From Alphaproteobacteria bacterium (GTDB lineage: Bacteria > Pseudomonadota > Alphaproteobacteria > Micropepsales > Micropepsaceae), in assembly GCA_023259375.1 (NCBI GenBank), contig JAHFQC010000016.1, positions 11,349 to 75,348 on the forward strand: 64,000 nt of DNA. The letters are read 5' to 3'. The notes beneath the pieces were generated by a model. The model searched no databases and had not been told where the DNA came from. It saw only the letters and a list, made by a program, of their open reading frames with translations. The translations under genes and the position numbers were made by a program. Positions 8,420-19,041 of this stretch are shown in pieces. Position 1 is the stretch's first letter; each line of letters starts with the position of its first letter.

Positions 8420-9766
8420 TCATCTCGTGATCGTTGGAAATCCATCGCCGTAGATGATTGCGACTGAAGTCGGGGCTGGATCTTCGTTCCGCGGGATATT
8501 TTCATTCGCTGGGGAACCGGGACTGGCCGGGGAGGGCGGTTTGGGGCGATTGGTGCCGCCCAGCATGGCCGCGATTTTGGCCGCTGTCCGATTGGCGACG
8601 TCGCACAGCGGGGCGGGCTGGAGGTGGGCGTAGCGTTCGGTCGTACTCGCTTGGCGGTGGCCGAGAACCTTGCCCACGAGATAGAGGCTGTCGCCACCAG
8701 AGACTGCAATCGACGCGAAGGCGTGGCGAAGATCATGTAAGCGGACGTCGTCGAGGTTGGCGAAGTGGCGGATGCGCTGCCAGGGCTTTTGAATGCCGAC
8801 GAAATGAGCCTCTTCGCGGTCCCCATGAAGGACGTAAGGGTTGTCCTGAAGGCTCGGGAGATCTTCGATTAGAGCGAGGGCGGGGCCGGAGAGCGGGAGG
8901 TTCTTGGGGCCGGTTTTGCTGTCGGGAAGGCGCACCAAACCGCGGTTCCAGTCGATATAGGACCATTTCAGCGTCAAAATCTCACTGAGCCGGGCACCGG
9001 TGAAGAGGAGGAGTCGATAGCAAGCGACCGCCCGCCAGTCCTCCGGCGCTTTGCGGCGGCGCTCGCGTGGTGGCAGGGCCTCCCATTCCGCATCCGAATA
9101 GCCGCGTTCGGCGTGGTCCAAAGCTTCGCCGAGCCGCGCCAACTCTTCGCTTGTTAAGAACCGTTCGCGCGAGTGCTCCTTGATGCGGTCGACGCCCCGG
9201 CAGGGATTGGTGTAATGGGCCCGAAGACCCCATTTTTCCGCAACCGTCATCATCGCCGAGAGCGTCCCCAAGCAACGGTTGCCTTTGACTTTGAACCCGC
9301 GCAGGTCGAGCTGGATTTTGGAGGCGTGTCCGCGGGTGATTTCGCTCATTTTGAGGGGGCCGATCACCGGCAGGATATGGAGGCGCAGGTTTCGGGCGTC
9401 TTCCTGGACCGCACGGGGCTTTTTGTGCAGTGGGGCGTAGTCCTCCAGGTACATCTTGGCGAATTCGGCAAAGGTTGGTTGGGTGCCAAAGGCGTCACGC
9501 TCAGCCGAGGGATCTCGTGGGTTCTCGTTACTCTCCGTCAGCCCCAAAAGCCGGCGGGCTTCGGAGCGGGCGGTCGCGGGTGTCCAGGGGGACCCGTGGC
9601 GGCCGATCGTGAAATATCGTTGCCGGCCATGAAACCGGTACTTCAGGATGTAGACCGTGTTCTGGCATTGGCGCCGGGCCCCAAAACCAGCCACATCGGT
9701 GTCCCAAATTGTCGCACCTGATTCGAGATTCGCGACACTCGTCAAAGTGATTTTCTGGCGCGCCAA
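8420..9766 (-). CDS. int: Tyrosine recombinase/integrase with N-terminal arm-binding domain (TTG start)
   Basis: WDTDVAGFGAR and TIGRHGSPWT arm domain; catalytic R (TGARLSE), K (DSKTG), HDLRH, LGH and Y (TERYAH) all present. Confidence 0.93.
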   Translation of the reverse strand: MARQKITLTSVANLESGATIWDTDVAGFGARRQCQNTVYILKYRFHGRQRYFTIGRHGSPWTPATARSEARRLLGLTESNENPRDPSAERDAFGTQPTFAEFAKMYLEDYAPLHKKPRAVQEDARNLRLHILPVIGPLKMSEITRGHASKIQLDLRGFKVKGNRCLGTLSAMMTVAEKWGLRAHYTNPCRGVDRIKEHSRERFLTSEELARLGEALDHAERGYSDAEWEALPPRERRRKAPEDWRAVACYRLLLFTGARLSEILTLKWSYIDWNRGLVRLPDSKTGPKNLPLSGPALALIEDLPSLQDNPYVLHGDREEAHFVGIQKPWQRIRHFANLDDVRLHDLRHAFASIAVSGGDSLYLVGKVLGHRQASTTERYAHLQPAPLCDVANRTAAKIAAMLGGTNRPKPPSPASPGSPANENIPRNEDPAPTSVAIIYGDGFPTITR

Positions 9767-9927
9767 GGCTATACTCCGTACACTGAGTAGATGTGATTTC
9801 AGCTACCAAACAGCAACCAGTTTAATGAGAATGCGTGGCGGCAGAAAAGTAGGCCTGTCGCATAAAATCCTTATTTAATAGGGGTTCTGACGGTGTGTGG
9901 CGGTATCTGTCGGTCCTATTGGAGCGG

Positions 9928-9972
9928 CTGGGGGACTGGGGGTCGAGAGTTCAAATCTCTCCGCTCCGACCA
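9928..9972 (+). repeat. att site: 3' half of tRNA-Pro(GGG) from anticodon loop to CCA
   Basis: ctggggg (anticodon loop) actgg gggtc gagag-ttcaaat-ctctc (T-arm) cgctccg acca; the upstream sequence lacks the D-arm and 5' acceptor strand. Confidence 0.85.
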
Positions 9973-10047
9973 TTTTTCCAAAGGCTTACAGACGATATCC
10001 CTTTCCAGACCTCGGAACTGGGTGGGAGTTCTGGGTGAGACTTTGCT

Positions 10048-10275
10048 TCAAGTTTTCCCGCCCCGGATCGCACCGAGCGCCGGCCGCTGGCTGGCCTTCT
10101 CGGCGGCGGCGCGTGTCACGTCATCGGCCACCTCGATGTATCCCTGTGTGGTCTCGAAATCGCTGTGATGCGCGAGAGCCTGGGCCGCGAGCGCCGCGCC
10201 ACTTGTGTGATGCACGCGGCACGGACCACCGCCAGTTCTTGCCGTGGGTCTCCTCGATCACCTTCATCGTCGGCG
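10048..10275 (-). pseudogene. C-terminal remnant of a second tyrosine integrase
   Basis: Manual translation: KNWRW / RAACITQVA / AAQALAHHSDFETTQGYIEV...GGKT*; box II motifs and catalytic Tyr at 10138-10140, with small deletions and frameshifts. Confidence 0.65.
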
Positions 10276-10375
10276 CTGCTTGCGGCGAGACTGGATCATC
10301 GGAGGATGAAGCCTCTGGGATGCTGGTTTAGTTCGGGGTACTTATTCCTCGTGAGCACTGTGGTGGCAGCCGATT

Positions 10376-11053
10376 ATGGGCGACATTCTCCTTATCGAAG
10401 ACGAGCCGGTCATGGCGGACTTCATTGTCCGCGGGCTCACCAATGAAGGGCATACCGTTGATCATGCCGCGACCGGCGACGCGGGGCTCGAACGGGCTCT
10501 GAAGCTCAATTACGGTCTTCTGATCGTCGATCGGATGCTGCCTGGCACTGATGGGTTGTCGCTGGTGAAGACCTTGCGCGAGCGCCAGGTGCGCGTGCCG
10601 GTGCTGTTTCTCAGCAATCTCGGTGAACTCGATGACAGAATTCTCGGGCTGAATGCGGGCGGCGACGATTATCTGCCCAAGCCGTTTGCCTTTGCCGAAT
10701 TACTGGCGCGCGCCAACGCGCTGCTGCGCCGGCCGGTGCAGACGGCCGAGCAAATCGTTTTGCAGCTCGGCGATTTGGAGATGCACCTGGTCAAACGCGA
10801 GGTCCGGCGGCAGGGGCGAGAGATCGACCTCAAGCCGCGCGAGTTCACGCTTCTGGAATACATGATGCGTAACGCCAACCAGGTCGTGACCCGAACGATG
10901 CTGCTGGAAGGCGTCTGGGGTTATCACTTCGATCCCAAGACCAACATCGTGGAAACCCATATCAGCCGTTTGCGCGCCAAGATCGGTGCCGATATGGTCG
11001 ATACCGTTCGCGGCTCCGGGTATATGATCCATGCGGCTCGCTCAAACGGTTAG
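10376..11053 (+). CDS. OmpR-family response regulator
   Basis: ILLIEDE, DRMLPG, DDYLPKPF, TNIVETHISRLRAKI, TVRGSGY. Confidence 0.95.
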   Translation: MGDILLIEDEPVMADFIVRGLTNEGHTVDHAATGDAGLERALKLNYGLLIVDRMLPGTDGLSLVKTLRERQVRVPVLFLSNLGELDDRILGLNAGGDDYLPKPFAFAELLARANALLRRPVQTAEQIVLQLGDLEMHLVKREVRRQGREIDLKPREFTLLEYMMRNANQVVTRTMLLEGVWGYHFDPKTNIVETHISRLRAKIGADMVDTVRGSGYMIHAARSNG

Positions 11054-12395
11054 GTCGGCGGCTTTCCGGCTGACGGCGGCTTATGTGCTGCTGTTCACCG
11101 TGTCCGTCGGCGTGCTTGCGGCGTTGACCTGGTTTCTAGTGGTGTCGCGGCTCGATCTCGAATTCCGCAACCATATTAGCGCCGACACCCACACGCTTTC
11201 CGCCGAATATACCGCCGGAGGACTCAAGCAGCTGCTGCATGCGATCAGCGAGCGCCAGCACAACCGTACCGCCGGCGGGCTTTACTATTCGGTGCTGGAT
11301 CCACAGGGGCGGACGCTGGCCGGAACGGCGGAGCGGCATTCTTGCCAAGCCGGATGGTTCGAGGTGGTGGGGCCGCCGGATGGCGACGAGCCTTCGGGCG
11401 AGATGGAACGCCTGGCCATTCTGGCGACGCCGCTGCAGCAAGGCTACTGCCTGATGGTCGGCGACGATTACGGCAAGGTGCGCGGAGTCGGAACGCTGGT
11501 ATTGCGCACGTTCGGCTGGGTGATCCTGGTCACGCTGACGCTGGCGGTCGCAGGCGGATTGCTGCTCAGTTCGCGCTTCCTCAAGCGCATCGAGGTCATC
11601 AACCGCACGGTGGAAGCCATCATTGAAGGCGATATCCGCCAGCGCATCCCGCGCCGGGCGGCACCGGACGATCTCGACCGGCTGGCCGCGACCCTCAACC
11701 GGATGCTTGATCGTACCAACGATCTGATGGAAAGCCTGCGCCACGTCACCAGCGATATCGCGCACGATCTGCGCACGCCGCTCGGCCGCTTGCGCAACCA
11801 GTTGGAGGACGCGAAAGCCCACGCCGGAACGCCCGAGGAATTCCGCGCTGCCGCGGAGAGCGCGATCGCGGAGGTCGACGGCCTGCTCGGGACTTTCAGC
11901 GCCATTCTCAGGATCGCCCAGATCGAAAGCGGGAGTCGCCGGGCGGGCTTCAAAACGTTTTCACTGAGCCGCGTGGTCGATGACGTCTGCGAGAGTTTCG
12001 CCGATGTTGCCGAGGACGCCGGCAAGACGCTGTCGGCCGATGTGGCGCCGAACATTGCCGTGAACGGCGACCAGGAGCTTCTGGTCCAGGCGCTGGTCAA
12101 TCTGATCGAGAACGCGATCGCCTACACGCCGCAAGGAAGCGCGATCACTGTCGGCTTGAAGCAGAGCGACGGCCGTATTGGCCTGACGGTCGCCGATAAC
12201 GGTCCGGGTGTTCCCGCGGAAGAGCTCGAACGCATCTTCCAGCGCTTCGTTCGCTTGGAGCCGAGTCGCAGCACGGCAGGCAACGGGCTGGGATTGAGTA
12301 TCGTAGCTGCCGTAGCGGAACTCCATGGCGGGGCAGTTCGCGCGCAGAATAACCATCCGGGGTTGCGGATGGAGCTGTCGCTTCCCGCCGTTTGA
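11031..12395 (+). CDS. HAMP-domain sensor histidine kinase
   Basis: Two TM segments, HAMP, IAHDLRTPL H-box, NLIENA, DNGPG, GLGLSIV. Confidence 0.95.
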   Translation: MRLAQTVRSAAFRLTAAYVLLFTVSVGVLAALTWFLVVSRLDLEFRNHISADTHTLSAEYTAGGLKQLLHAISERQHNRTAGGLYYSVLDPQGRTLAGTAERHSCQAGWFEVVGPPDGDEPSGEMERLAILATPLQQGYCLMVGDDYGKVRGVGTLVLRTFGWVILVTLTLAVAGGLLLSSRFLKRIEVINRTVEAIIEGDIRQRIPRRAAPDDLDRLAATLNRMLDRTNDLMESLRHVTSDIAHDLRTPLGRLRNQLEDAKAHAGTPEEFRAAAESAIAEVDGLLGTFSAILRIAQIESGSRRAGFKTFSLSRVVDDVCESFADVAEDAGKTLSADVAPNIAVNGDQELLVQALVNLIENAIAYTPQGSAITVGLKQSDGRIGLTVADNGPGVPAEELERIFQRFVRLEPSRSTAGNGLGLSIVAAVAELHGGAVRAQNNHPGLRMELSLPAV

Positions 12396-12531
12396 TACGG
12401 TTTGCGACCGACTTTTCGCGTTTCCCGCAAATACGACAAAAATGACGAACTCCCGCAATGTGAGGGTAGGTTCGCCACGCTAAAACCCATACGTCTTTAA
12501 CGCCTTTGCACATCACGGGAATTGACGGACC

Positions 12532-12990
12532 ATGGGCTTACGCGCCGTGCGATGGGCACTCTTGTGCCTTGCGGTAGGATTAATTGGATTACCGGCGCAT
12601 GCCGCCGACCTCGATCTCAGCGCTTACAAGGGAAAAGTCGTCTATCTCGACTTCTGGGCGTCGTGGTGCACGCCATGCCGCCAGTCGTTTCCCTGGCTGA
12701 GCCAAATCCAGGAGAGCAACGGCCAGCGCGGCCTCGTCGTCATCGCGGTCAATGTCGATCACGACAAGGACCTGGCGGATAAATTCCTCCAACGTTTTTT
12801 GCCCCGCTTCAAGATCGTCTACGACCTCAACGGCGAGATCGCCCACACCTATGGCCTCAAGGACATGCCGACCTCGTATGTGATCGGGCGCGACGGCAAG
12901 GTGCGCTTCACCCACGCCGGCTTCTATCCCAACCAGGAGGGCACATATGCGGCCCATATCGAGGAGGCCCTCAATGAACCGTCTCGTTGA
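12532..12990 (+). CDS. TlpA-family thioredoxin-like disulfide reductase, exported
   Basis: Signal peptide; YKGKVVYLDFWASWCTPC; MPTSYVIGRDG. Confidence 0.92.
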   Translation: MGLRAVRWALLCLAVGLIGLPAHAADLDLSAYKGKVVYLDFWASWCTPCRQSFPWLSQIQESNGQRGLVVIAVNVDHDKDLADKFLQRFLPRFKIVYDLNGEIAHTYGLKDMPTSYVIGRDGKVRFTHAGFYPNQEGTYAAHIEEALNEPSR

Positions 12991-13210
12991 TCTCGCGCGG
13001 CGCACCGCCGTGTGCGTGGCGATCGGTGTGGCCGTGAGCGGCTGTTCGACCTTTGGCCCCGAGCCGTGGGAAAAAGACCTGATGGCGAAGAAGCCGATGC
13101 AGGTCGATGCCTATGCGCTCGAAGCGGCCGCCGTCGATCACATCTATTTCAGCAAGGAAGCGTCCAGCGGTGGTCGCGGCTTCGCCGGCGGAGGTTGCGG
13201 ATGCAATTGA
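12974..13210 (+). CDS. DUF4266 lipoprotein
   Basis: Lipobox VSGC; PWEKDLMAK..M; HIYFSKEASSGG..GGGCGCN C-terminus. Confidence 0.88.
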   Translation: MNRLVDLARRTAVCVAIGVAVSGCSTFGPEPWEKDLMAKKPMQVDAYALEAAAVDHIYFSKEASSGGRGFAGGGCGCN

Positions 13211-14604
13211 AGCGGCGCGGCAAAGTCCGGAAAAAGCTCGGCGCTTTATCGGCGAGTTTGATTGCTGCCTCGGTCGCCGCTCAGGTCGAGCGGGCCGATG
13301 CGCAAAGCTCCGACATGTATTACAAGTACGACAAGCAAAATAACGACTTCGGCCCCGGCATCGCCTACAGCCAGTTGGATGCGGCGCTGCTGGTCTATGC
13401 GGAGCAGGGCGGGCGCATCACCGCTCTTGAACCGACGCTCAATCTCGCCGTGCATGGGCCGAAAGACCAGCTTCTAACGCTGGAACTCACCGCCGATGCG
13501 GTTTCCGGCGCCACGCCCAACGGTGCGGTCAAGGCCGACATTCTGCAAACCTTCGTGACGCCGACCAAATCGGCCGGATCGTCCTATTCGGTGACGAGCG
13601 CCTCCGGCGGCTCGACCATCATTCACGTTCCCGGACAGCCGGCCATTCGTCAGTACACGGTGGACGCGGGACAATTGCCGATGGATAAAGGGTTCGAAGA
13701 CCACCGCGGCGCCTTCAATCTGTCCTATTCGCAGCCGTGGGGCTGGTTCTCCCAGGTCGGCGCGGGCGTGGGCTATTCGATGGAAAGCGATTACAGCTCC
13801 ATCATCGCGAATGTTCATGCCGCCAAGACGTTCAACAGCAACAACACTACACTGAGCCTGTCGCTCAACACCGAATACGATACTTCATCGCCATTTGGCG
13901 GTGTGCCGACGCCGCTGACGGCAATGGACGGAACCTGGAAATCGCCGAATTCGAAAACGAAAACGCAACTCGGGTTCGTCGTCGGTTTGACCCAGGTGAT
14001 GACCCGCAATTGGCTGATGCAGCTCAACTACGCCTACGACAACCAGAGCGGCTATCAGAACGACCCCTACCGCATCCTGTCGGTGGTCGATCCGTCGAGC
14101 GGTGAGCCCAACCAGTACCTCTACGAGAACCGTCCCAACAAACGCGTCAGCCACAGCGTGTTCTGGGACAACAAGGTTGCCTTGGGGCCGACCATCTCCG
14201 ATTTGTCGCTGCGCTATTTCACCGATAGCTGGGGCATTACGTCAAAGACCGCGGAATTTTCCGAGCGCGTGGATCTCGGTTCGCGGCTCTATGTCGAGCC
14301 GAGCGTGCGCTGGTACCAGCAGAGTGCGGCCAACTTCTTCCACTATTATCTCGTCGGCAGCCAGCCGCTGCCGGACTACGCCTCGTCCGACATCCGCCTC
14401 GGCAAGTTCACGTCGATTACCTACGGCGGCAAGGTCGGCCTCGCGCTAACCGGGCGGACCGAGCTTTACGTGCGCGGCGGCTATTACGTCCAGACCGGTA
14501 ACGGCCATCCGGCCGATGCCATCGGCCAGCTCAAGAACCAGGATCTGTTCTCCGGAACCAAGGCTTTGTTCGGCTTCGTCGGCTATACCTGGGACTTCCA
14601 TTGA
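13201..14604 (+). CDS. DUF3570 family predicted outer-membrane beta-barrel, candidate ApbE substrate
   Basis: DAVSGAT motif, MESDYSS, GYQNDPYR, YASSDIRL, aromatic C-terminus YTWDFH; synteny with TlpA, DUF4266 and ApbE. Confidence 0.85.
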   Translation: MQLKRRGKVRKKLGALSASLIAASVAAQVERADAQSSDMYYKYDKQNNDFGPGIAYSQLDAALLVYAEQGGRITALEPTLNLAVHGPKDQLLTLELTADAVSGATPNGAVKADILQTFVTPTKSAGSSYSVTSASGGSTIIHVPGQPAIRQYTVDAGQLPMDKGFEDHRGAFNLSYSQPWGWFSQVGAGVGYSMESDYSSIIANVHAAKTFNSNNTTLSLSLNTEYDTSSPFGGVPTPLTAMDGTWKSPNSKTKTQLGFVVGLTQVMTRNWLMQLNYAYDNQSGYQNDPYRILSVVDPSSGEPNQYLYENRPNKRVSHSVFWDNKVALGPTISDLSLRYFTDSWGITSKTAEFSERVDLGSRLYVEPSVRWYQQSAANFFHYYLVGSQPLPDYASSDIRLGKFTSITYGGKVGLALTGRTELYVRGGYYVQTGNGHPADAIGQLKNQDLFSGTKALFGFVGYTWDFH

Positions 14605-14617
14605 CGTGAACGCACTC

Positions 14618-15517
14618 ATGCCGTCTGAGCATTTCAGCACCGGGTTGACGCAAAGCGGGCGCGATACGCTGTACGTCTTCCAGGCCATGGCGACGCCCTG
14701 TGAGGTCCGCCTCGAAACGCTGAATTTCACCTTGGCCGAGCATGTGGCGCGGGTGGTCGAGACGGAAACGCGGCGGATCGAGCAGAAGTTCAGCCGCTAT
14801 CGTGCCGATAGCGTCATCAGCCGGATCAATGCGGTGGCGGGCGCGCCGGTGGAAGTCGATGCCGAAACCGCCATGCTGCTCGATTTCGCCGATCAGTGTC
14901 ATCGGTTGTCGGATGGCTTGTTCGACATCACCTCCGGGGCGCTGCGGCGCGTCTGGCGGTTCGACGGCTCGGATAGCGTGCCGGATGCGGCTGAGGTCAA
15001 AGCCGTTCTGCCGCAGATCGGCTGGAACAAAGTGAAGTGGCAGGCGCCGCTTCTCACACTCACCGAAGGCATGGAGATCGATTTCGGCGGCTTGGCCAAG
15101 GAATACGCCGTCGATCGCGCCATCGCATTGGCGGGGCAGGTCACCAAGATCCCGACACTGATCAATTTCGGCGGCGACCTCTGCGTATCGGGACCGCGCG
15201 CCGACGGCTCGCGCTGGAAGGTCGCCATCGAATCCGTCGATCAGTCGGGCGGTATGGCGGCGATGCTGGAGCTGTCTCAGGGCGCGCTGGCGACCAGCGG
15301 CGATGCCCGCCGCTTTCTGCTCAAGGACGGCGTGCGCTACGGCCATATCCTCAATCCCAAAACCGGCTGGCCGATTGCGCAAGCGCCGCGTTCGGTCACT
15401 GTGGCGGCAGCGACTTGTGTCGAAGCCGGCATGACCGCGACCATGACTATTCTCCAAGGCAAGCACGCAGAGCGTTTCTTGAAGCGCGAAGGCGTCAAGG
15501 CCTGGTGCATCCGGTGA
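14618..15517 (+). CDS. apbE: FAD:protein FMN transferase ApbE
   Basis: AMATPCEV, FSRYRADS, FDITSG, IDFGGLAKEYAVD, NFGGD, LATSGD, YGHILNPKTGWP. Confidence 0.93.
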   Translation: MPSEHFSTGLTQSGRDTLYVFQAMATPCEVRLETLNFTLAEHVARVVETETRRIEQKFSRYRADSVISRINAVAGAPVEVDAETAMLLDFADQCHRLSDGLFDITSGALRRVWRFDGSDSVPDAAEVKAVLPQIGWNKVKWQAPLLTLTEGMEIDFGGLAKEYAVDRAIALAGQVTKIPTLINFGGDLCVSGPRADGSRWKVAIESVDQSGGMAAMLELSQGALATSGDARRFLLKDGVRYGHILNPKTGWPIAQAPRSVTVAAATCVEAGMTATMTILQGKHAERFLKREGVKAWCIR

Positions 15518-15518
15518 C

Positions 15519-17546
15519 ATGATGCTGGAACGAGCCCTGATCTTCGCATTCGCGGTATTCACCGCGCTCATCGTGGCTCCGGGCGCACAGGCCGGTTCAA
15601 GCGCAACGCTGGATCATGTCCGCCTCGATGCCACGCTCGAGGCGCCGCTTCAGCCGGGAAAGACGGTCTGGGTCGCGATCCATCAGCACATGGATTCCGG
15701 CTGGCACACCTATTGGCGCAATCCCGGTGAAGCCGGCGTCGCGACATCCATAGCCTGGACCCTGCCTCAAGGCGTCACGGCTGGAGACATCCGCTGGCCC
15801 ACGCCGGAGCGGTTCAGCGATGGCACGGTCACCAATTACGGCTACGCGAAAGACGCAACGCTGCTGGTGCCGCTGACCGCGTCGACAACCGCGAAGTCCG
15901 GTATCGCACATCTGAAGGTCAACCTCCTGGCCTGCGAGCATATGTGCATTCCCGAAGAGGCGACGCTCGACCTCGATCTCGGCAAGGCGTCCGGCACTGC
16001 GGCGATGTTCGAAGCGGCGCGGCGCGCAATGCCGCGACCGTTTGCTGGAACCGCCCGCTTTTCGCTCGATGCGCATTCCGTGCGCGTGGTGCTGGATTTA
16101 CCGCAAGCCCCTGCGGCCGATGCCGTCGCAGTATTTTCCGCTGAGCAGCGCTTGCTGGCAGACGGCGGTGTTGCCCGCGTGCGCGTGGACGGATCGCGCG
16201 TGACCTGGACCATGCCGGTTGAGGCCGGTGCGAAGGCGCCCGCCTCGTTCTCCGGTGTCGTTGCGGTGGCCGGGCAGGGCGCCTGGGCGTTCACGGCACA
16301 GCCGGGCGTGTTTGCCGCGTCGCCGACGAATGCTGCCCACGACAACGGTCTGTTGGCGGCACTGGCATTGGCTTTTCTCGGCGGCTTGATCTTGAATCTG
16401 ATGCCGTGCGTGCTGCCGGTCCTCTCCATGAAGGCGCTGGCCTTGGCCCGCACGGGTTCTGATAACGCTGCGGCCAAGCGGGAAGGGCTGTTCTATCTCG
16501 CGGGTGTGATGGCGACGTTCGCCACTATGGCGACAGTTCTGTTGACGCTGAAAGCCAGCGGCGCCGCGCTCGGCTGGGGCTTCCAATTGCAGTCGCCGGT
16601 CGTCGTTCTGGGGCTCGCCCTCTTGATGGCGACCATCGGCATGAATCTCTTCGGCGCCTTCGAATTGCCGTTGGGATTTGCCGGTGCGGGCGATCATCTG
16701 GCGCAAAGCGGCGGCGCCAAAGGAGCGTTCTTTACCGGCGCCCTGGCGGTGGTGGTTGCCAGCCCGTGCACGGCGCCGTTCATGGGCGCGGCGCTCGGCT
16801 TTGCCCTGACGCAACCGGTCCTCGCGGCGGCTTCAGTCTTTCTGGCGCTTGGCTTGGGATTTGCCGCTCCGTTCACCATCGTCAGTTTCTCGCCCGCATT
16901 GGTTCGCCTGCTGCCGAAACCCGGTAACTGGATGAACACCTTCAAGCAGGCCATGGCCTTCCCGATGTTCGCAACCGCGATCTGGTTGTTGTGGGTCTTG
17001 GCACGGCAGAGCGGGACCGATGCCGTCATCATTGGGTTGGCCGTGGGCCTCGGCATCGCGCTAGTCGTGTGGTTGTGCCGGATCACACGCGGCTTGTGGT
17101 CGTGGGTGGTTGGCATTGCCGGCGCGGTTGCCTTGACGATCAGTTCCGCCCTGGCACTCATCCCGCCGGCGCCATCAGCGCAGCCGATGTGGCAGCCGTG
17201 GTCGGAACAGGCGCTGGCTTCGGCGCGCCAGACGGGCCGCCCGGTGCTGGTCGATTTCTCCGCCGCGTGGTGCGTGACCTGTCTCGTCAACGAGCGCGTG
17301 GCGCTGAACGATGCGACGGTGATGAAGCGTCTGAAAGAGGCCCGCGTGGTGACCTTGAAAGGCGATTGGACCAATCCCGATCCGGCGATCACCGCGGCAC
17401 TGCACCAGTTTGGCCGCGACGGCGTCCCGCTTTACGCGCTCTACAGGCCGGGTGGAAAGACCGAAGTGCTGCCGCAGATCCTGACGCCGGAAATCGTTTT
17501 GGCCGCGCTGGAAAACGCCGGCGCGACAGCGGCTCAGTCTCGCTGA
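15519..17546 (+). CDS. dsbD: Protein-disulfide reductase DsbD family
   Basis: GWHTYWRNPG and ACEHMCIPE (alpha domain); LNLMPCVLPV and SPCTAPFM (TM domain); AAWCVTC (thioredoxin domain). Confidence 0.92.
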   Translation: MMLERALIFAFAVFTALIVAPGAQAGSSATLDHVRLDATLEAPLQPGKTVWVAIHQHMDSGWHTYWRNPGEAGVATSIAWTLPQGVTAGDIRWPTPERFSDGTVTNYGYAKDATLLVPLTASTTAKSGIAHLKVNLLACEHMCIPEEATLDLDLGKASGTAAMFEAARRAMPRPFAGTARFSLDAHSVRVVLDLPQAPAADAVAVFSAEQRLLADGGVARVRVDGSRVTWTMPVEAGAKAPASFSGVVAVAGQGAWAFTAQPGVFAASPTNAAHDNGLLAALALAFLGGLILNLMPCVLPVLSMKALALARTGSDNAAAKREGLFYLAGVMATFATMATVLLTLKASGAALGWGFQLQSPVVVLGLALLMATIGMNLFGAFELPLGFAGAGDHLAQSGGAKGAFFTGALAVVVASPCTAPFMGAALGFALTQPVLAAASVFLALGLGFAAPFTIVSFSPALVRLLPKPGNWMNTFKQAMAFPMFATAIWLLWVLARQSGTDAVIIGLAVGLGIALVVWLCRITRGLWSWVVGIAGAVALTISSALALIPPAPSAQPMWQPWSEQALASARQTGRPVLVDFSAAWCVTCLVNERVALNDATVMKRLKEARVVTLKGDWTNPDPAITAALHQFGRDGVPLYALYRPGGKTEVLPQILTPEIVLAALENAGATAAQSR

Positions 17547-17820
17547 AGAAAAACCAAACACTGCCATCCCAGCCATGTCTGCCTGAACGTCAACTCCGCA
17601 CGCGGAGAACGGGCACGCATGGTCTATTGCCACCTATGTATTTCTGAATTTGTCGATTTGTCGCATGAAAGTGTCCAATATCCACCAAATTGTGAAATGA
17701 ATATCAGAGCGAGCGGAGTATGAAGACGGGGATCCGGTGATCGTGTTGGACGGTTATCTAGTCAGACGGCGAAGCGCCGGTCGATTCCAAGTCCGTGAGA
17801 GTGCCGTTAAGAGGAATGTG

Positions 17821-19041
17821 ATGTCAGAGTGGTCCGATCATTATGCGACGCGTGTTTCCCACATGCAGGCGTCGGAAATTCGCGAATTGTTGAAGCTGCT
17901 GGATCAGCCCGACATTATTTCCTTCGCCGGCGGCATTCCCGACCCCGCACTGTTTCCGCAGCAGGAAATCGCTCAGGCCTATCAGCGCATTCTCAGTGAC
18001 CCGGAGCGGTCGGCCGTGGCGCTGCAATACTCGATCAGCGAAGGCTATCCGCCGCTGCGCGAGTGGCTGGCGGGTTATATGGGCCGGCTTGGCGTCACTT
18101 GCACGCCCGACAACATCCTGATCACCAACGGCTCGCAGCAGGGTCTCGATTTCGTCGGCAAGCTGTTCGTCTCGCCCGGTGACACCGTTCTGGTGGCGTG
18201 GCCGACCTATCTCGGCGCTTTGCAGGCGTTCTCCAGCTACGAGCCGCGGTTCGATGTGTTGCCTGGGCCCAACACCAATCGCACGCTGGAAAGCTATACC
18301 GCCGGCGGAAAGGCGAAACCGAAATTCGGCTATGTGATGCCGGAATTCCAGAACCCCACCGGCACCTGCGCCAGCCTTGCCGAGCGTGAACGCATGCTCG
18401 ATGTGGCGGCGGAACTCGATCTGCCGCTGGTCGAAGACAGTGCTTACGAGAAGCTGCGCTATGACGGCGAGCGTGTGCCGTCGCTGCTGGCATTGGCGGC
18501 CAAGCGCGCCGGCGGCATCGATCACTGCAAGGTGCTCTATTGCGGCACCTTCTCCAAGAGCATCGTTCCGGCGCTGCGCATCGGCTGGATCGTGGCGGCC
18601 AAGCCGGTCATTCAGAAGCTGGTCCTGATGAAGCAGGCCAGTGACCTGCACGTTTCCACCTTGAACCAGATGGTGATGTACGAGGTCGCTTCAGCGGTGA
18701 TCGAGGATCAGGCCGAGAAGATGCGGCCGGTTTATCGCGCGCGGCGGGATGCCATGGTGGCTGCGCTCGACCGTTATATGCCGGAGGGCGTCAGCTTCAC
18801 CCGGCCGGAAGGCGGCATGTTCGTGTGGGCGACATTGCCGGACGGCATCGATGGGGCCGCGCTTCTGAAGCGCTGCATCGAGGTGGGGCGGGTTGCTTTC
18901 GTTCCCGGTGCCGCGTTCTTCGCCGATCGCTCCTGCCGCAACACCATCCGCCTGAGCTTCTCCTTGAACGAGCCGGCCAAGGTGGAAGAGGGCATCAAAC
19001 GCCTCGCGTCGGTGCTCAAGCAGGTCATTGCGGAAAGGTAG
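17821..19041 (+). CDS. PLP-dependent aminotransferase class I/II (LysN/ARO8-like)
   Basis: SEIRELLK, ISFAGGIPD, ALQYSISEG, ITNGSQQ, FQNPTG, GTFSKSIVPALRIGW. Confidence 0.9.
   Translation: MSEWSDHYATRVSHMQASEIRELLKLLDQPDIISFAGGIPDPALFPQQEIAQAYQRILSDPERSAVALQYSISEGYPPLREWLAGYMGRLGVTCTPDNILITNGSQQGLDFVGKLFVSPGDTVLVAWPTYLGALQAFSSYEPRFDVLPGPNTNRTLESYTAGGKAKPKFGYVMPEFQNPTGTCASLAERERMLDVAAELDLPLVEDSAYEKLRYDGERVPSLLALAAKRAGGIDHCKVLYCGTFSKSIVPALRIGWIVAAKPVIQKLVLMKQASDLHVSTLNQMVMYEVASAVIEDQAEKMRPVYRARRDAMVAALDRYMPEGVSFTRPEGGMFVWATLPDGIDGAALLKRCIEVGRVAFVPGAAFFADRSCRNTIRLSFSLNEPAKVEEGIKRLASVLKQVIAER

Follow-up and report, generated by a model that had tools for sequence, protein, structure and literature searches.

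Gene content of the locus

Within the window (the whole stretch of 64,000 nucleotides that was analysed) lie five genes that Pfam identified with scores far over the curated cut-offs, all on the + strand, encoding a TlpA-like protein, DUF4266, DUF3570, ApbE and DsbD. Directly upstream we found the adjacent regulator and kinase that an earlier note on this DNA had named, an OmpR-type regulator and a HAMP/HisKA/HATPase kinase, both of which fall outside the interval that the note itself described. The features are as follows:

10376..11053, + strand: OmpR/PhoB-type response regulator, 225 aa (Pfam Response_reg and Trans_reg_C)
11031..12395, + strand: sensor histidine kinase, 454 aa (2 TM segments, periplasmic domain, HAMP, HisKA, HATPase by Pfam)
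12434..12460, + strand: 27-nt element CGACAAAAATGACGAACTCCCGCAATG, 72 nt before the ATG of tlpA, a candidate promoter or binding site of the regulator
12532..12990, + strand: TlpA/ResA-like periplasmic thiol:disulfide oxidoreductase, 152 aa (Pfam Redoxin, AhpC-TSA, Thioredoxin_8)
12974..13210 (alternative ORF start 12947), + strand: DUF4266 lipoprotein, 78 aa (Pfam PF14086, 68.8 bits)
13201..14604 (ORF 13012-14604; real start ATG 13201), + strand: DUF3570, 467 aa (Pfam PF12094, 333.9 bits)
13495..13515, + strand: DUF3570 flavinylation site 1, DAVSGAT (D99-T105), predicted FMN acceptor T105 (13513-13515)
13588..13605, + strand: DUF3570 flavinylation site 2, SVTSAS (to S135), predicted acceptor S135 (13603-13605)
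14618..15517 (ORF 14516-15517), + strand: ApbE-family FAD:protein FMN transferase, 299 aa (Pfam PF02424, 236.3 bits)
15519..17546, + strand: ScsB-type DsbD, 675 aa (Pfam DsbD_N, DsbD_TM, Thioredoxin_7)

The earlier note had assigned the TlpA-DUF4266-DUF3570-ApbE-DsbD set to a reported class of ApbE-associated clusters, and both the Pfam matches for all five genes and the published description bear this out. Meheust, Huang, Rivera-Lugo, Banfield and Light (2021, eLife 10:e66878; PMC8238504) described "DsbD systems", or DUF3570 flavinylation-associated clusters, composed of ApbE, DUF3570, a thioredoxin-like protein and DUF4266 (CXC), with or without DsbD. The present locus shares with these systems the same genes, a two-site DUF3570, a C-terminal CXC in DUF4266 and the same proposed hybrid thiol/flavin route; it differs at site 2, which reads TSAS here as opposed to a strict [S/T]GA[S/T]. 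The cluster is a complete, regulator-linked copy of a system known since 2021 and is not new as a type. Nor is the electron route that the earlier note had proposed, as the path from DsbD via the thioredoxin-like protein and DUF4266 to the flavin is a hypothesis already in print (PMC8238504). The text of that paper nowhere uses "beta-barrel", uses "outer membrane" for TonB receptors only, and mentions neither the cognate ApbE's missing export signal nor a dedicated two-component system (PMC8238504). Across 80 related loci from Alpha- and Gammaproteobacteria, Elusimicrobiota and Eisenbacteria, the order TlpA-DUF4266-DUF3570-ApbE is nearly universal.

The predicted DUF3570 barrel and its candidate flavinylation sites

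Read from ATG 13201, which overlaps the DUF4266 stop, DUF3570 begins with a Sec-type signal peptide. Its AF2 model (pLDDT 89, pTM 0.85) has 16 long strands whose faces are hydrophobic and polar in alternation, with turns of 2-5 residues on the side of the termini and loops of 20-63 residues opposite. Foldseek searches with this model matched outer-membrane barrels only, and the best structural matches by VIA-align were the 16-stranded outer-membrane barrels of PgaA (4Y25, Z 20.6), PelB (9H80, Z 20.4) and BcsC (6TZK, Z 18.7), over 258-301 aligned residues. The likeness is one of fold, not function: sequence identity is 5-14%, DUF3570 is without TPR domains and no polysaccharide genes lie nearby. 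Model and fold searches together support the earlier suggestion of an outer-membrane barrel, and DUF3570 is strongly predicted to be a secreted, 16-stranded one.

Both motifs were found exactly at the positions first reported. Site 1, DAVSGAT, fits the ApbE FMN-attachment motif and is not a chance occurrence: when 131 diverse DUF3570 representatives are aligned, 114 of them have D..[ST][GS]A[ST] at this column, and D99 and G103 are invariant. Site 2, SVTSAS, is followed by a nearly invariant G136, and the subfamily consensus here is TxTSASG. Among 81 DUF3570 copies, 66 bear site 1 and 52 of these have T[STG]ASG or TxPSG at site 2, with TSASG as the most frequent form (19 loci). Model confidence is lowest in the site 2 stretch (pLDDT 62-67). 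In Chlorobium luteolum, the cognate ApbE attaches flavin to DUF3570 at two [S/T]GA[S/T] sites, and co-expression, in-gel fluorescence and Ser/Thr mutants have already been reported for this homologue (PMC8238504). The present genome (96.5% complete) holds one ApbE and one DUF3570, and we found no FMN_bind or DUF2271 domains in it; we count as support that DUF3570 would be the genome's sole ApbE substrate.

In the model, T105 and S135 both lie on the 63-residue second outer loop (L2), on the side opposite the termini. This is also where conservation concentrates: 35 of 46 conserved mature positions are in outer loops or strand tips (height at least 0.79), a further 7 lie between 0.50 and 0.73, and of the 3 that lie no higher than 0.36, one is at the periplasmic end. 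The model strongly predicts that both sites sit amid the family's conserved, charged, lumen-facing residues, while we infer the placement of L2, lumen or surface, from topology rules and conservation alone. The concept of redox cofactors held inside an outer-membrane barrel, as a path for electrons through the membrane, recalls the MtrCAB porin-cytochrome conduit of Shewanella (PDB 6R2Q), whose match to our model is a generic fold match only (Z 14.8, rmsd 8.2). However, MtrB is a 26-strand sheath round a separate decahaem protein, whereas DUF3570 has 16 strands, its own thiol-fed loop would carry two covalent FMNs, and trans-membrane electron transfer is putative.

ApbE lacks an export signal

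ApbE, whose closest solved relatives are TM1553 and other FMN transferases, likely starts at ATG 14618 or GTG 14606, and the stop-to-stop extension upstream is polar throughout. We looked for export signals by eye and with a crude hydropathy window; whichever start is chosen, the N-terminus of the window's ApbE showed no signal peptide, lipobox, hydrophobic stretch or twin-arginine motif. Likewise, a hydrophobic N-terminus is missing from all 81 ApbE copies scored (80 from related loci plus the window's own, across four phyla), although 79-95% of the TlpA, DUF4266 and DsbD copies from the same loci have one. ApbE being without an export signal, the flavin is therefore probably attached before export. 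FAD, ApbE's donor substrate, is cytoplasmic, which argues in the same direction. The earlier description of the system as one of extracytosolic flavinylation may not apply to the attachment step as such, given an ApbE with neither signal peptide nor lipobox. In the published work, removal of the signal peptide did not prevent DUF3570 from being flavinylated in the cytoplasm of E. coli, even though the protein was recovered in the insoluble pellet (PMC8238504).

The alternative, which we regard as unlikely though the strongest of those considered, is that ApbE crosses the inner membrane, directed by a signal that escaped recognition or carried along by another protein, and flavinylates the unfolded DUF3570 chain in the periplasm before BAM insertion. 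Every characterised system with an exported-domain target does have an exported or lipidated ApbE (background in PMC8238504), and both sites, lying in the loop region of a chain kept unfolded by chaperones, would be within reach of a periplasmic enzyme; the export features missing from all these ApbE copies speak against it.

Putative thiol partners of the predicted barrel

The TlpA-like protein has a signal peptide (...PAHA|AD) and a WCTPC active site, and its matches to NCBIfam ResA, DsbE and TlpA are below the cut-offs. It is encoded directly upstream of DUF4266 in 76 of the 80 related loci. DUF4266, whose ATG at 12974 follows a GAGGAGG by 5 nt, has a VSGC lipobox (Cys24) with Ser at +2 and a Gly-rich tail ending GGGCGCN; the CGCN ending previously noted is thus present, as GGCGCN followed by a stop. 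All 73 homologues examined end in GCGCN, the invariant residues in 54 sequences are C24, W32, H56 and G72-N78, and tail residues 69-78 are modelled with pLDDT <50 (AF2). The strong prediction for DUF4266 is a small lipoprotein whose C-terminal Cys-Gly-Cys tail is both invariant and flexible. Such a tail is also found in the yeast FAD thiol oxidase Erv2p, where it shuttles disulfides to the flavin site, and the redox potential of a CGC disulfide is near -170 mV. In both cases the tail would trade disulfides with a redox centre linked to a flavin. The FAD-dependent Erv2p, however, is soluble, uses O2 to oxidise thiols and bears its tail within the same polypeptide, whereas the DUF4266 tail sits on a separate lipoprotein and the electron flow we propose goes from thiol to flavin.

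DsbD has a signal peptide, a DsbD_N domain with CEHMC, a DsbD_TM domain with two Cys and a C-terminal thioredoxin domain with WCVTC; TlpA and this ScsB-type DsbD are strongly predicted to carry all their redox cysteines. The DsbD N-domain matches the 257-residue 6c29_A at 9.7e-14, with its Cx3C aligned to CSNVC; this structure we take to be the Proteus mirabilis ScsB-alpha N-terminal domain. In Caulobacter, ScsB feeds TlpA, ScsC and PprX. Our locus shares with ScsB pathways a DsbD-family transporter with a DsbD_N-type N-domain and Cx3C that would feed a TlpA-like periplasmic oxidoreductase, yet the known clients are disulfide isomerases and a peroxiredoxin, as opposed to a CGC-tailed lipoprotein and a flavinylated barrel. 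A second DsbD_TM protein is encoded elsewhere in the genome. Electron input is not uniform among the 80 related loci, because DsbD is present in 21 and the others have cytochrome b561 or nothing.

A possible role in metal reduction or in envelope defence

Rather than in uptake or respiration, the cluster could act in envelope defence, as an Scs-like reductive stress pathway running from ScsB to TlpA and onwards, a reading to which we give about one chance in four. On this reading, the flavin barrel would work at the outer membrane, detoxifying an oxidant, a quinone or Cu(II), and a two-component system that senses metals or oxidants would induce the module. The N-domain's match was deposited as "Putative metal resistance protein", and the regulator and kinase come closest to the heavy-metal families CopRS/CztRS, but their scores for the regulator TIGR01387 (the best NCBIfam match, 207.6 bits, cut-off 279) and the sensor kinase TIGR01386 (197.9 bits, cut-off 292) are both below cut-off. 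The kinase's periplasmic domain conserves a GPPDGDE motif and a pair of co-varying Cys, which might serve as a sensor of the redox state of thiols. Moreover, the cluster has a patchy distribution in the genus, with 9 positive genomes out of 36 searched, and adjoins an integrase (Pfam) in the window, as is often so for accessory stress modules, and AcrB-type efflux genes are near it in a few loci. Against defence, the genes that recur next to the cluster in the 80 related loci belong to iron uptake (a TonB-dependent receptor in 15, FecR in 10, an ECF sigma factor in 9) and not to detoxification, and we saw no copper-binding motifs in the DUF3570 barrel or DUF4266. TonB-dependent receptor, FecR and ECF sigma genes are absent from this window. 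The earlier note's proposal that a metal or thiol is reduced at the surface, or taken up reductively, is doubtful, as nothing in the window speaks for it directly.

The two-component system and the element upstream of tlpA

The window is 86% identical in DNA to Rhizomicrobium electricum over exactly 10375-17497, from the regulator start almost to the dsbD end, with no homology in the flanks of that block. In the genus, kinase orthologues (50-62% identity) flank the operon, being present in 8 of 10 DUF3570-positive genomes vs 3 of 27 where DUF3570 was not found. The element CGACAAAAATGACGAACTCCCGCAATG at 12434-12460 is unique in the window, with 0 matches in 100 shuffles even when 3 mismatches were allowed. 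Across 1.38 Mb of loci it occurs exclusively in those of the Rhizomicrobium clade that have the two-component system in collinear arrangement, once in each and with constant position and orientation; it may serve as a binding site.

The two-component link first suggested stands for the Rhizomicrobium clade, on the strength of the R. electricum block, the kinase orthologues and the upstream element; elsewhere, the adjacent systems are non-orthologous or missing. That the pair is a mere neighbour regulating something else, its adjacency reflecting shared inheritance in one clade, is improbable. In favour of this view, the orthologous pair is confined to this clade, gammaproteobacterial loci have unrelated kinases (20-28% identity) or none, no cluster was found beside the kinase orthologue of three genus genomes, and one genus genome carries the cluster but lacks the orthologue. 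Against it, the linkage of the pair to the operon survives three arrangements (collinear, divergent and downstream), the block shared with R. electricum begins at the regulator start codon, the element is conserved only where the pair is present, and other lineages have recruited unrelated two-component systems (an OmpR-type regulator within 10 kb in 27 of the 80 loci, usually adjacent). These comparisons support the regulator and kinase as probable members of the module. On balance, we favor the reading that regulator, kinase, tlpA, DUF4266, DUF3570, apbE and scsB/dsbD form a seven-gene, 7.1-kb module of the published DsbD-type thiol/flavin envelope redox system.

Proposed electron route

In the scheme we propose, ApbE would attach FMN to T105 and S135 of unfolded DUF3570 before barrel assembly, most likely in the cytoplasm and before Sec export, with putative Sec passage of the FMN-modified chain. 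Reducing power would pass from cytoplasmic thioredoxin through ScsB/DsbD across the inner membrane to periplasmic TlpA, and from there to the CGC tail of outer-membrane-anchored DUF4266. This tail would enter the barrel from the periplasmic side and reduce the FMNs by dithiol-flavin chemistry. The flavins would in turn reduce a substrate, either within the lumen of the barrel or on the cell surface, our leading guess being a metal, for example Fe(III) or Cu(II). Upon an envelope signal, the OmpR-type two-component system would turn the operon on, probably via the 27-nt element upstream of tlpA.

A complete, regulator-linked member of a published flavinylation system

An ORF listing and Pfam searches revealed five tightly packed operon genes on the + strand, preceded by a two-component pair, which together make up the following module:

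10376-11053, +, OmpR-type regulator, upstream of the operon
11031-12395, +, HAMP/HisKA/HATPase sensor kinase, upstream of the operon
12532-12990, +, TlpA-like Redoxin protein (Pfam and ORF listing)
likely start ATG 12974, +, DUF4266 (PF14086; 68.8 bits, Pfam), the ATG lying 5 nt past GAGGAGG and overlapping the end of tlpA
start ATG 13201, +, DUF3570 (PF12094; 333.9 bits, Pfam), the start overlapping the DUF4266 stop
start ATG 14618 or GTG 14606, +, ApbE (PF02424; 236.3 bits against a cut-off of 25.6), directly past the DUF3570 stop
15519-17546, +, DsbD with DsbD_N, DsbD_TM and Thioredoxin_7 (Pfam; DsbD_TM 74.1 bits), beginning 1 nt past the apbE stop

The earlier note had assigned these genes to a reported class of ApbE-associated clusters, and we found all the components of that class: ApbE, DUF3570, DUF4266 with a C-terminal CXC, a thioredoxin-like protein and DsbD (PF02683). 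Reading the DNA also placed the motifs that it named where it had claimed them, i.e., DAVSGAT (site 1, 13495-13515) and SVTSAS (site 2, 13588-13605) in DUF3570, with DUF4266 ending in GGCGCN-stop. The TlpA-like protein carries WCTPC, a CxxC site on account of which we rejected a peroxiredoxin reading. Scans of 9700-17900 found no consensus sigma-70 promoter and no intrinsic terminators above chance.

Meheust et al. (2021; PMC8238504), who counted more than 500 DUF3570 clusters, describe 'DsbD systems' and, in addition to those with DsbD, 316 clusters that lack it. Using co-expression in E. coli, they showed that the DUF3570 of Chlorobium luteolum is flavinylated by its cognate ApbE, the flavin signal being lost only when both [S/T]GA[S/T] serines were mutated. 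The hybrid thiol/flavin electron route of the earlier note is a hypothesis published in that paper, and the flavinylation test it proposed has been performed on the C. luteolum homologue; thus neither the route nor the test is new, and the window cluster adds a new and complete copy, linked to a regulator, to an already published system. Few papers in the literature searched mention DUF3570 or DUF4266, the text of PMC8238504 does not call DUF3570 a barrel, and we found no paper since 2021 linking flavinylation, the outer membrane, ApbE and a barrel. Beyond PMC8238504, we predict a 16-strand barrel with both flavins on one loop (L2), an invariant GCGCN lipoprotein tail, a leaderless ApbE, and a dedicated sensor pair accompanied by a conserved element upstream of tlpA.

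Two conserved flavin sites in DUF3570

Searching 1.84 billion representatives with DUF3570 yielded 1524 matches at E <= 0.001, from which 131 full-length, diverse proteins were aligned; 80 related loci were retrieved with a 20-sequence alignment. The window protein contains two [S/T]GA[S/T]-like motifs, SGAT (102-105) and TSAS (132-135), the latter with Ser for Gly. At site 1, a D..[ST][GS]A[ST] motif occupies one shared column in 114 of the 131 aligned proteins, within a family consensus of D-x-L-T-G-A-S-P-N-G-A, and D99, G103 and G108 are invariant. At site 2, the family at large conserves T-x-P-S-G, and its proteobacterial branch T-[S/T/G]-A-S-G. The window's form, TSASG, is the most frequent (19 loci), and TGASG, a canonical [S/T]GA[S/T], occurs in 8 loci. 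From these patterns, T105 and S135 are the predicted FMN acceptors.

The genome carrying the window (155 contigs, 96.5% complete), whose nearest named relative is Rhizomicrobium electricum (90% identity in DUF3570), encodes one ApbE and one DUF3570, and we found neither an FMN_bind domain nor DUF2271 in this assembly. DUF3570 is therefore its only recognisable ApbE substrate. Among the related loci, L037 (from the MAG REEB62) bears a tandem duplicate of TlpA-DUF4266-DUF3570, with one ApbE and one DsbD behind it and another, divergent ApbE upstream.

DUF3570, a probable outer-membrane barrel with both sites on one outer loop

The DUF3570 leader (MQLKRRGKVRKKLGALSASLIAASVAAQVERADA, cut before Q) was judged by inspection to be a signal peptide. 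Modelling the protein with AlphaFold2 on the 131-sequence alignment gave a confident fold (mean pLDDT 89, pTM 0.85) with 16 long strands, most of them with one hydrophobic and one polar face. When this model was searched with Foldseek, all of the best 50 of at least 500 matches were outer-membrane barrels, and the Foldseek-independent VIA-align likewise placed 16-stranded barrels at the top, led by PgaA (Z 20.6, rmsd 3.8, 259 aligned residues) and followed by PelB (Z 20.4), BcsC (Z 18.7) and CdiB/FhaC (Z 17-18). On the termini side the strands are joined by turns of 2-5 residues, and on the opposite side by long connections of 63, 22, 29, 28 and 20, suggesting the usual outer-membrane arrangement, in which the termini lie in the periplasm. 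As to a C-terminal beta-signal, which would end in an aromatic residue, the protein closes with ...GYTWDFH (family consensus GYxFxx) and has its aromatic residue next to last and not last. Taken together, the 16-strand model and the barrel-only fold matches bear out the outer-membrane barrel that had been proposed from the sequence, and DUF3570 is most likely such a protein. A Tat route for it was rejected: the KRRGKVRKK of the leader is off the twin-arginine consensus, and barrels are not exportable in folded form.

In the model, sites 1 and 2 both fall on the 63-residue loop L2, between strands 3 and 4, with the stretch around site 2 being the least confident part (pLDDT 62-67). Conservation clusters on the same side: among the 46 positions of the mature protein that are invariant or nearly so, 35 belong to outer loops or to the tips of strands (height at least 0.79), 7 lie at 0.50-0.73 and 3 at 0.36 or below, one of the latter at the periplasmic end. 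Several conserved residues also follow an i, i+2 lumen-facing pattern (Y66/E68, D167/R169, S193/E195/D197 and R370/Y372/Q374). We infer that the loops may fold inward and form a conserved, charged flavin pocket in the outer half of the barrel.

ApbE lacks a leader in every locus compared

The window ApbE has a polar N-terminus in any reading, with neither a signal peptide nor a lipobox, and its N-terminal extension (read stop-to-stop, before F-x-A-M-A-T-P-C-E) is polar here and in nine relatives from the genus and class. Across the 80 loci, which span four phyla, we detected no in-frame hydrophobic leader on ApbE. By a crude measure, the highest hydropathy of any 12-residue window, the 81 ApbE copies scored had a median of 0.47 and none (0%) reached 2.0, against 79% of TlpA, 95% of DUF4266 and 82% of DsbD copies; the Ala/Ser-rich DUF3570 leaders had a median of 1.80. 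The same lack of a hydrophobic segment led us to reject a Tat route for ApbE.

These enzymes also form an ApbE subfamily. In all of them (loci L024-L103, and 14680-14700 of the window) A-M-A-[S/T]-P-C-E replaces the M-G-T of other ApbEs, and in most copies the Cys occupies the Thr position in an alignment with TM1553. For the NCBIfam equivalog of E. coli/Salmonella-type ApbE (NF007774), the window protein scores 97.3 bits where the cut-off is 498; it belongs to the ApbE family by Pfam and is not that equivalog.

Where, then, would FMN be attached? [quoted passage not shown] Because of this result, and because both sites would sit on the far side of the folded barrel, the most economical reading has FMN being added to unfolded DUF3570 before assembly, and probably before Sec export. 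The rival reading places attachment in the periplasm instead, and is to be weighed against the polar N-termini of ApbE throughout the loci; we favor attachment before assembly.

A lipoprotein with an invariant tail and a ScsB-type DsbD

DUF4266 has a VSGC lipobox with an invariant Cys24 and Ser at +2, and by the +2 rule it would be anchored in the outer membrane, facing the periplasm. From such a position, its Gly-rich CGC tail could readily reach into the barrel. The GCGCN terminus is present in all 73 homologues from the related loci (73/73), and in 54 sequences C24, W32, M42, H56, F59, S60, E62 and G72-N78 are invariant. AlphaFold2 gave a weak model (pLDDT 68, two short helices) with the tail below pLDDT 50, which fits a tail that is flexible, or ordered only on a partner. 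No natural DUF4266-DUF3570 fusions were found among eight unusually long homologues.

Inspection of DsbD identified six cysteines: a CEHMC pair, two in the membrane domain (PCVLP and SPCTAP) and a WCVTC pair. The stretch 32-160 matches chain 6c29_A (257 residues; 'Putative metal resistance protein'; E 9.7e-14), which we take to be the N-domain of Proteus mirabilis ScsB. Since this match brings the Cx3C pairs into register (CEHMC with CSNVC), the window DsbD is, by sequence, ScsB-type. Elsewhere the genome encodes another DsbD_TM protein (contig C78, 37758-38393, locus L109; open frame of 717 aa), which is presumably its housekeeping DsbD or ScsB, so that the window DsbD would be an extra, dedicated copy. 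DsbD is present in 21 of the 80 related loci. In ten others, mostly from Steroidobacteraceae, it is missing; there apbE is followed by a cytochrome b561, and a PAP2 protein lies upstream.

A two-component pair travels with the operon

That the regulator is linked to the operon, as the earlier note had supposed, is borne out by the adjacency of the pair in several layouts, a shared block and a conserved element. Outside this genome, we found DUF3570 in 9 of the 36 other genus genomes searched. In six of the eight loci with enough context, orthologues of both regulator and kinase (50-69% identity) sit next to the operon, in collinear, divergent and downstream layouts. A genus search with the kinase separated orthologues (47-62% identity) from a near-universal paralogue (~38%). 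Eight of the ten DUF3570-positive genomes, including the one studied here, encode an orthologue, and one more carries a fragment where its contig ends; orthologues were also found in 3 of the 27 genomes in which DUF3570 was not, in one case at the end of a 4.2-kb contig, and there was no cluster near two of these three.

A blastn comparison with R. electricum DSM 21034 returned one block of 86% identity, at 10375-17497 of the window, running from the regulator start to nearly the dsbD stop, with no homology in the flanking 7 kb on each side. This single block without homologous flanks suggests that the seven genes move as one unit. The region at 8420-10375 holds a tyrosine integrase (Phage_integrase and Arm-DNA-bind_3) 600 bp left of the module, and as the R. 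electricum homology starts at the regulator start codon (10375), the module's left edge abuts the integration region. No tRNA gene was detected in the window.

Where a collinear pair is present, a 27-nt element (12434-12460 in the window) is kept ahead of tlpA, at a distance of ~70-100 nt. The window holds this single copy, where chance would give none, and outside such sites the 1.38 Mb of loci contain no other; we read it as a putative promoter or operator footprint.

The kinase has a periplasmic domain with a conserved GPPDGDE-x-GEME and cysteines at ~105 and ~140, both present in eight orthologues and replaced in the three most distant (F/L/A and W), which suggests a structural or possibly redox-sensing disulfide. 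The pair is nearest to the heavy-metal CopRS/CusRS/CztRS families and falls below their cut-offs (regulator, TIGR01387, 207.6 against 279.2 bits; kinase, TIGR01386, 197.9 against 292.55).

Outside the clade, non-orthologous OmpR-type pairs adjoin the operon, and 27 of the 80 loci have a regulator no more than 10 kb away, usually adjacent. An alternative layout recurs in eight loci without DsbD from Steroidobacteraceae and related Gammaproteobacteria (L066, L068, L070, L072, L073, L075, L077 and L096), with a kinase, two Pfam-less proteins (258 and 170 aa), a regulator and a PAP2 phosphatase upstream of the core; cytochrome b561 follows downstream in five of them (L068, L070, L072, L077 and L096).

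Neighboring genes in related loci lean toward iron

There is no direct clue to the substrate within the window. Several additional genes recur among the 80 loci: a TonB-dependent receptor in 15, FecR in 10 and an ECF sigma factor in 9, besides cytochrome b561, PAP2 and an occasional AcrB. ECF sigma, FecR and TonB-dependent receptor, together an iron-uptake signalling unit, lie beside the core in nine loci from Caulobacterales, Sphingomonadales and related groups (L039, L040, L044-L047, L058, L062 and L064; FecR and the receptor only in L046). Meheust et al., who left the function open, reported VIT1 iron transporters in 25 clusters (PMC8238504). These neighbors, in line with the VIT1 link, lean toward iron as a possible substrate of the DUF3570 system.

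A bolder proposal, which we regard as rather unlikely, is that the system forms a cytochrome-free 'porin-flavin' conduit across the outer membrane. Two FMNs, added in the cytoplasm by the leaderless ApbE, would pass through Sec and BAM on the lumen-filling DUF3570 loop and be recharged from the periplasmic side by the Cys-Gly-Cys tail of DUF4266; in Rhizomicrobium the conduit would deliver electrons to extracellular Fe(III) or to electrodes, governed by its own sensor pair. R. electricum is an anode-respiring bacterium.

The DUF3570 system is widespread, and this copy is useful for its 86% DNA identity to the culturable, electrochemically active R. electricum DSM 21034 and for its own sensor and regulator, which could bring the inducing signal, and thence the function, within reach of ordinary genetics and transcriptomics. 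Should the barrel, flavinylation before export and thiol-to-flavin transfer all prove right, DUF3570 would be the first covalent flavoprotein assembled by BAM, and diderms would have, besides haem conduits and soluble shuttles, a third route for bringing redox power to or beyond the outer membrane.
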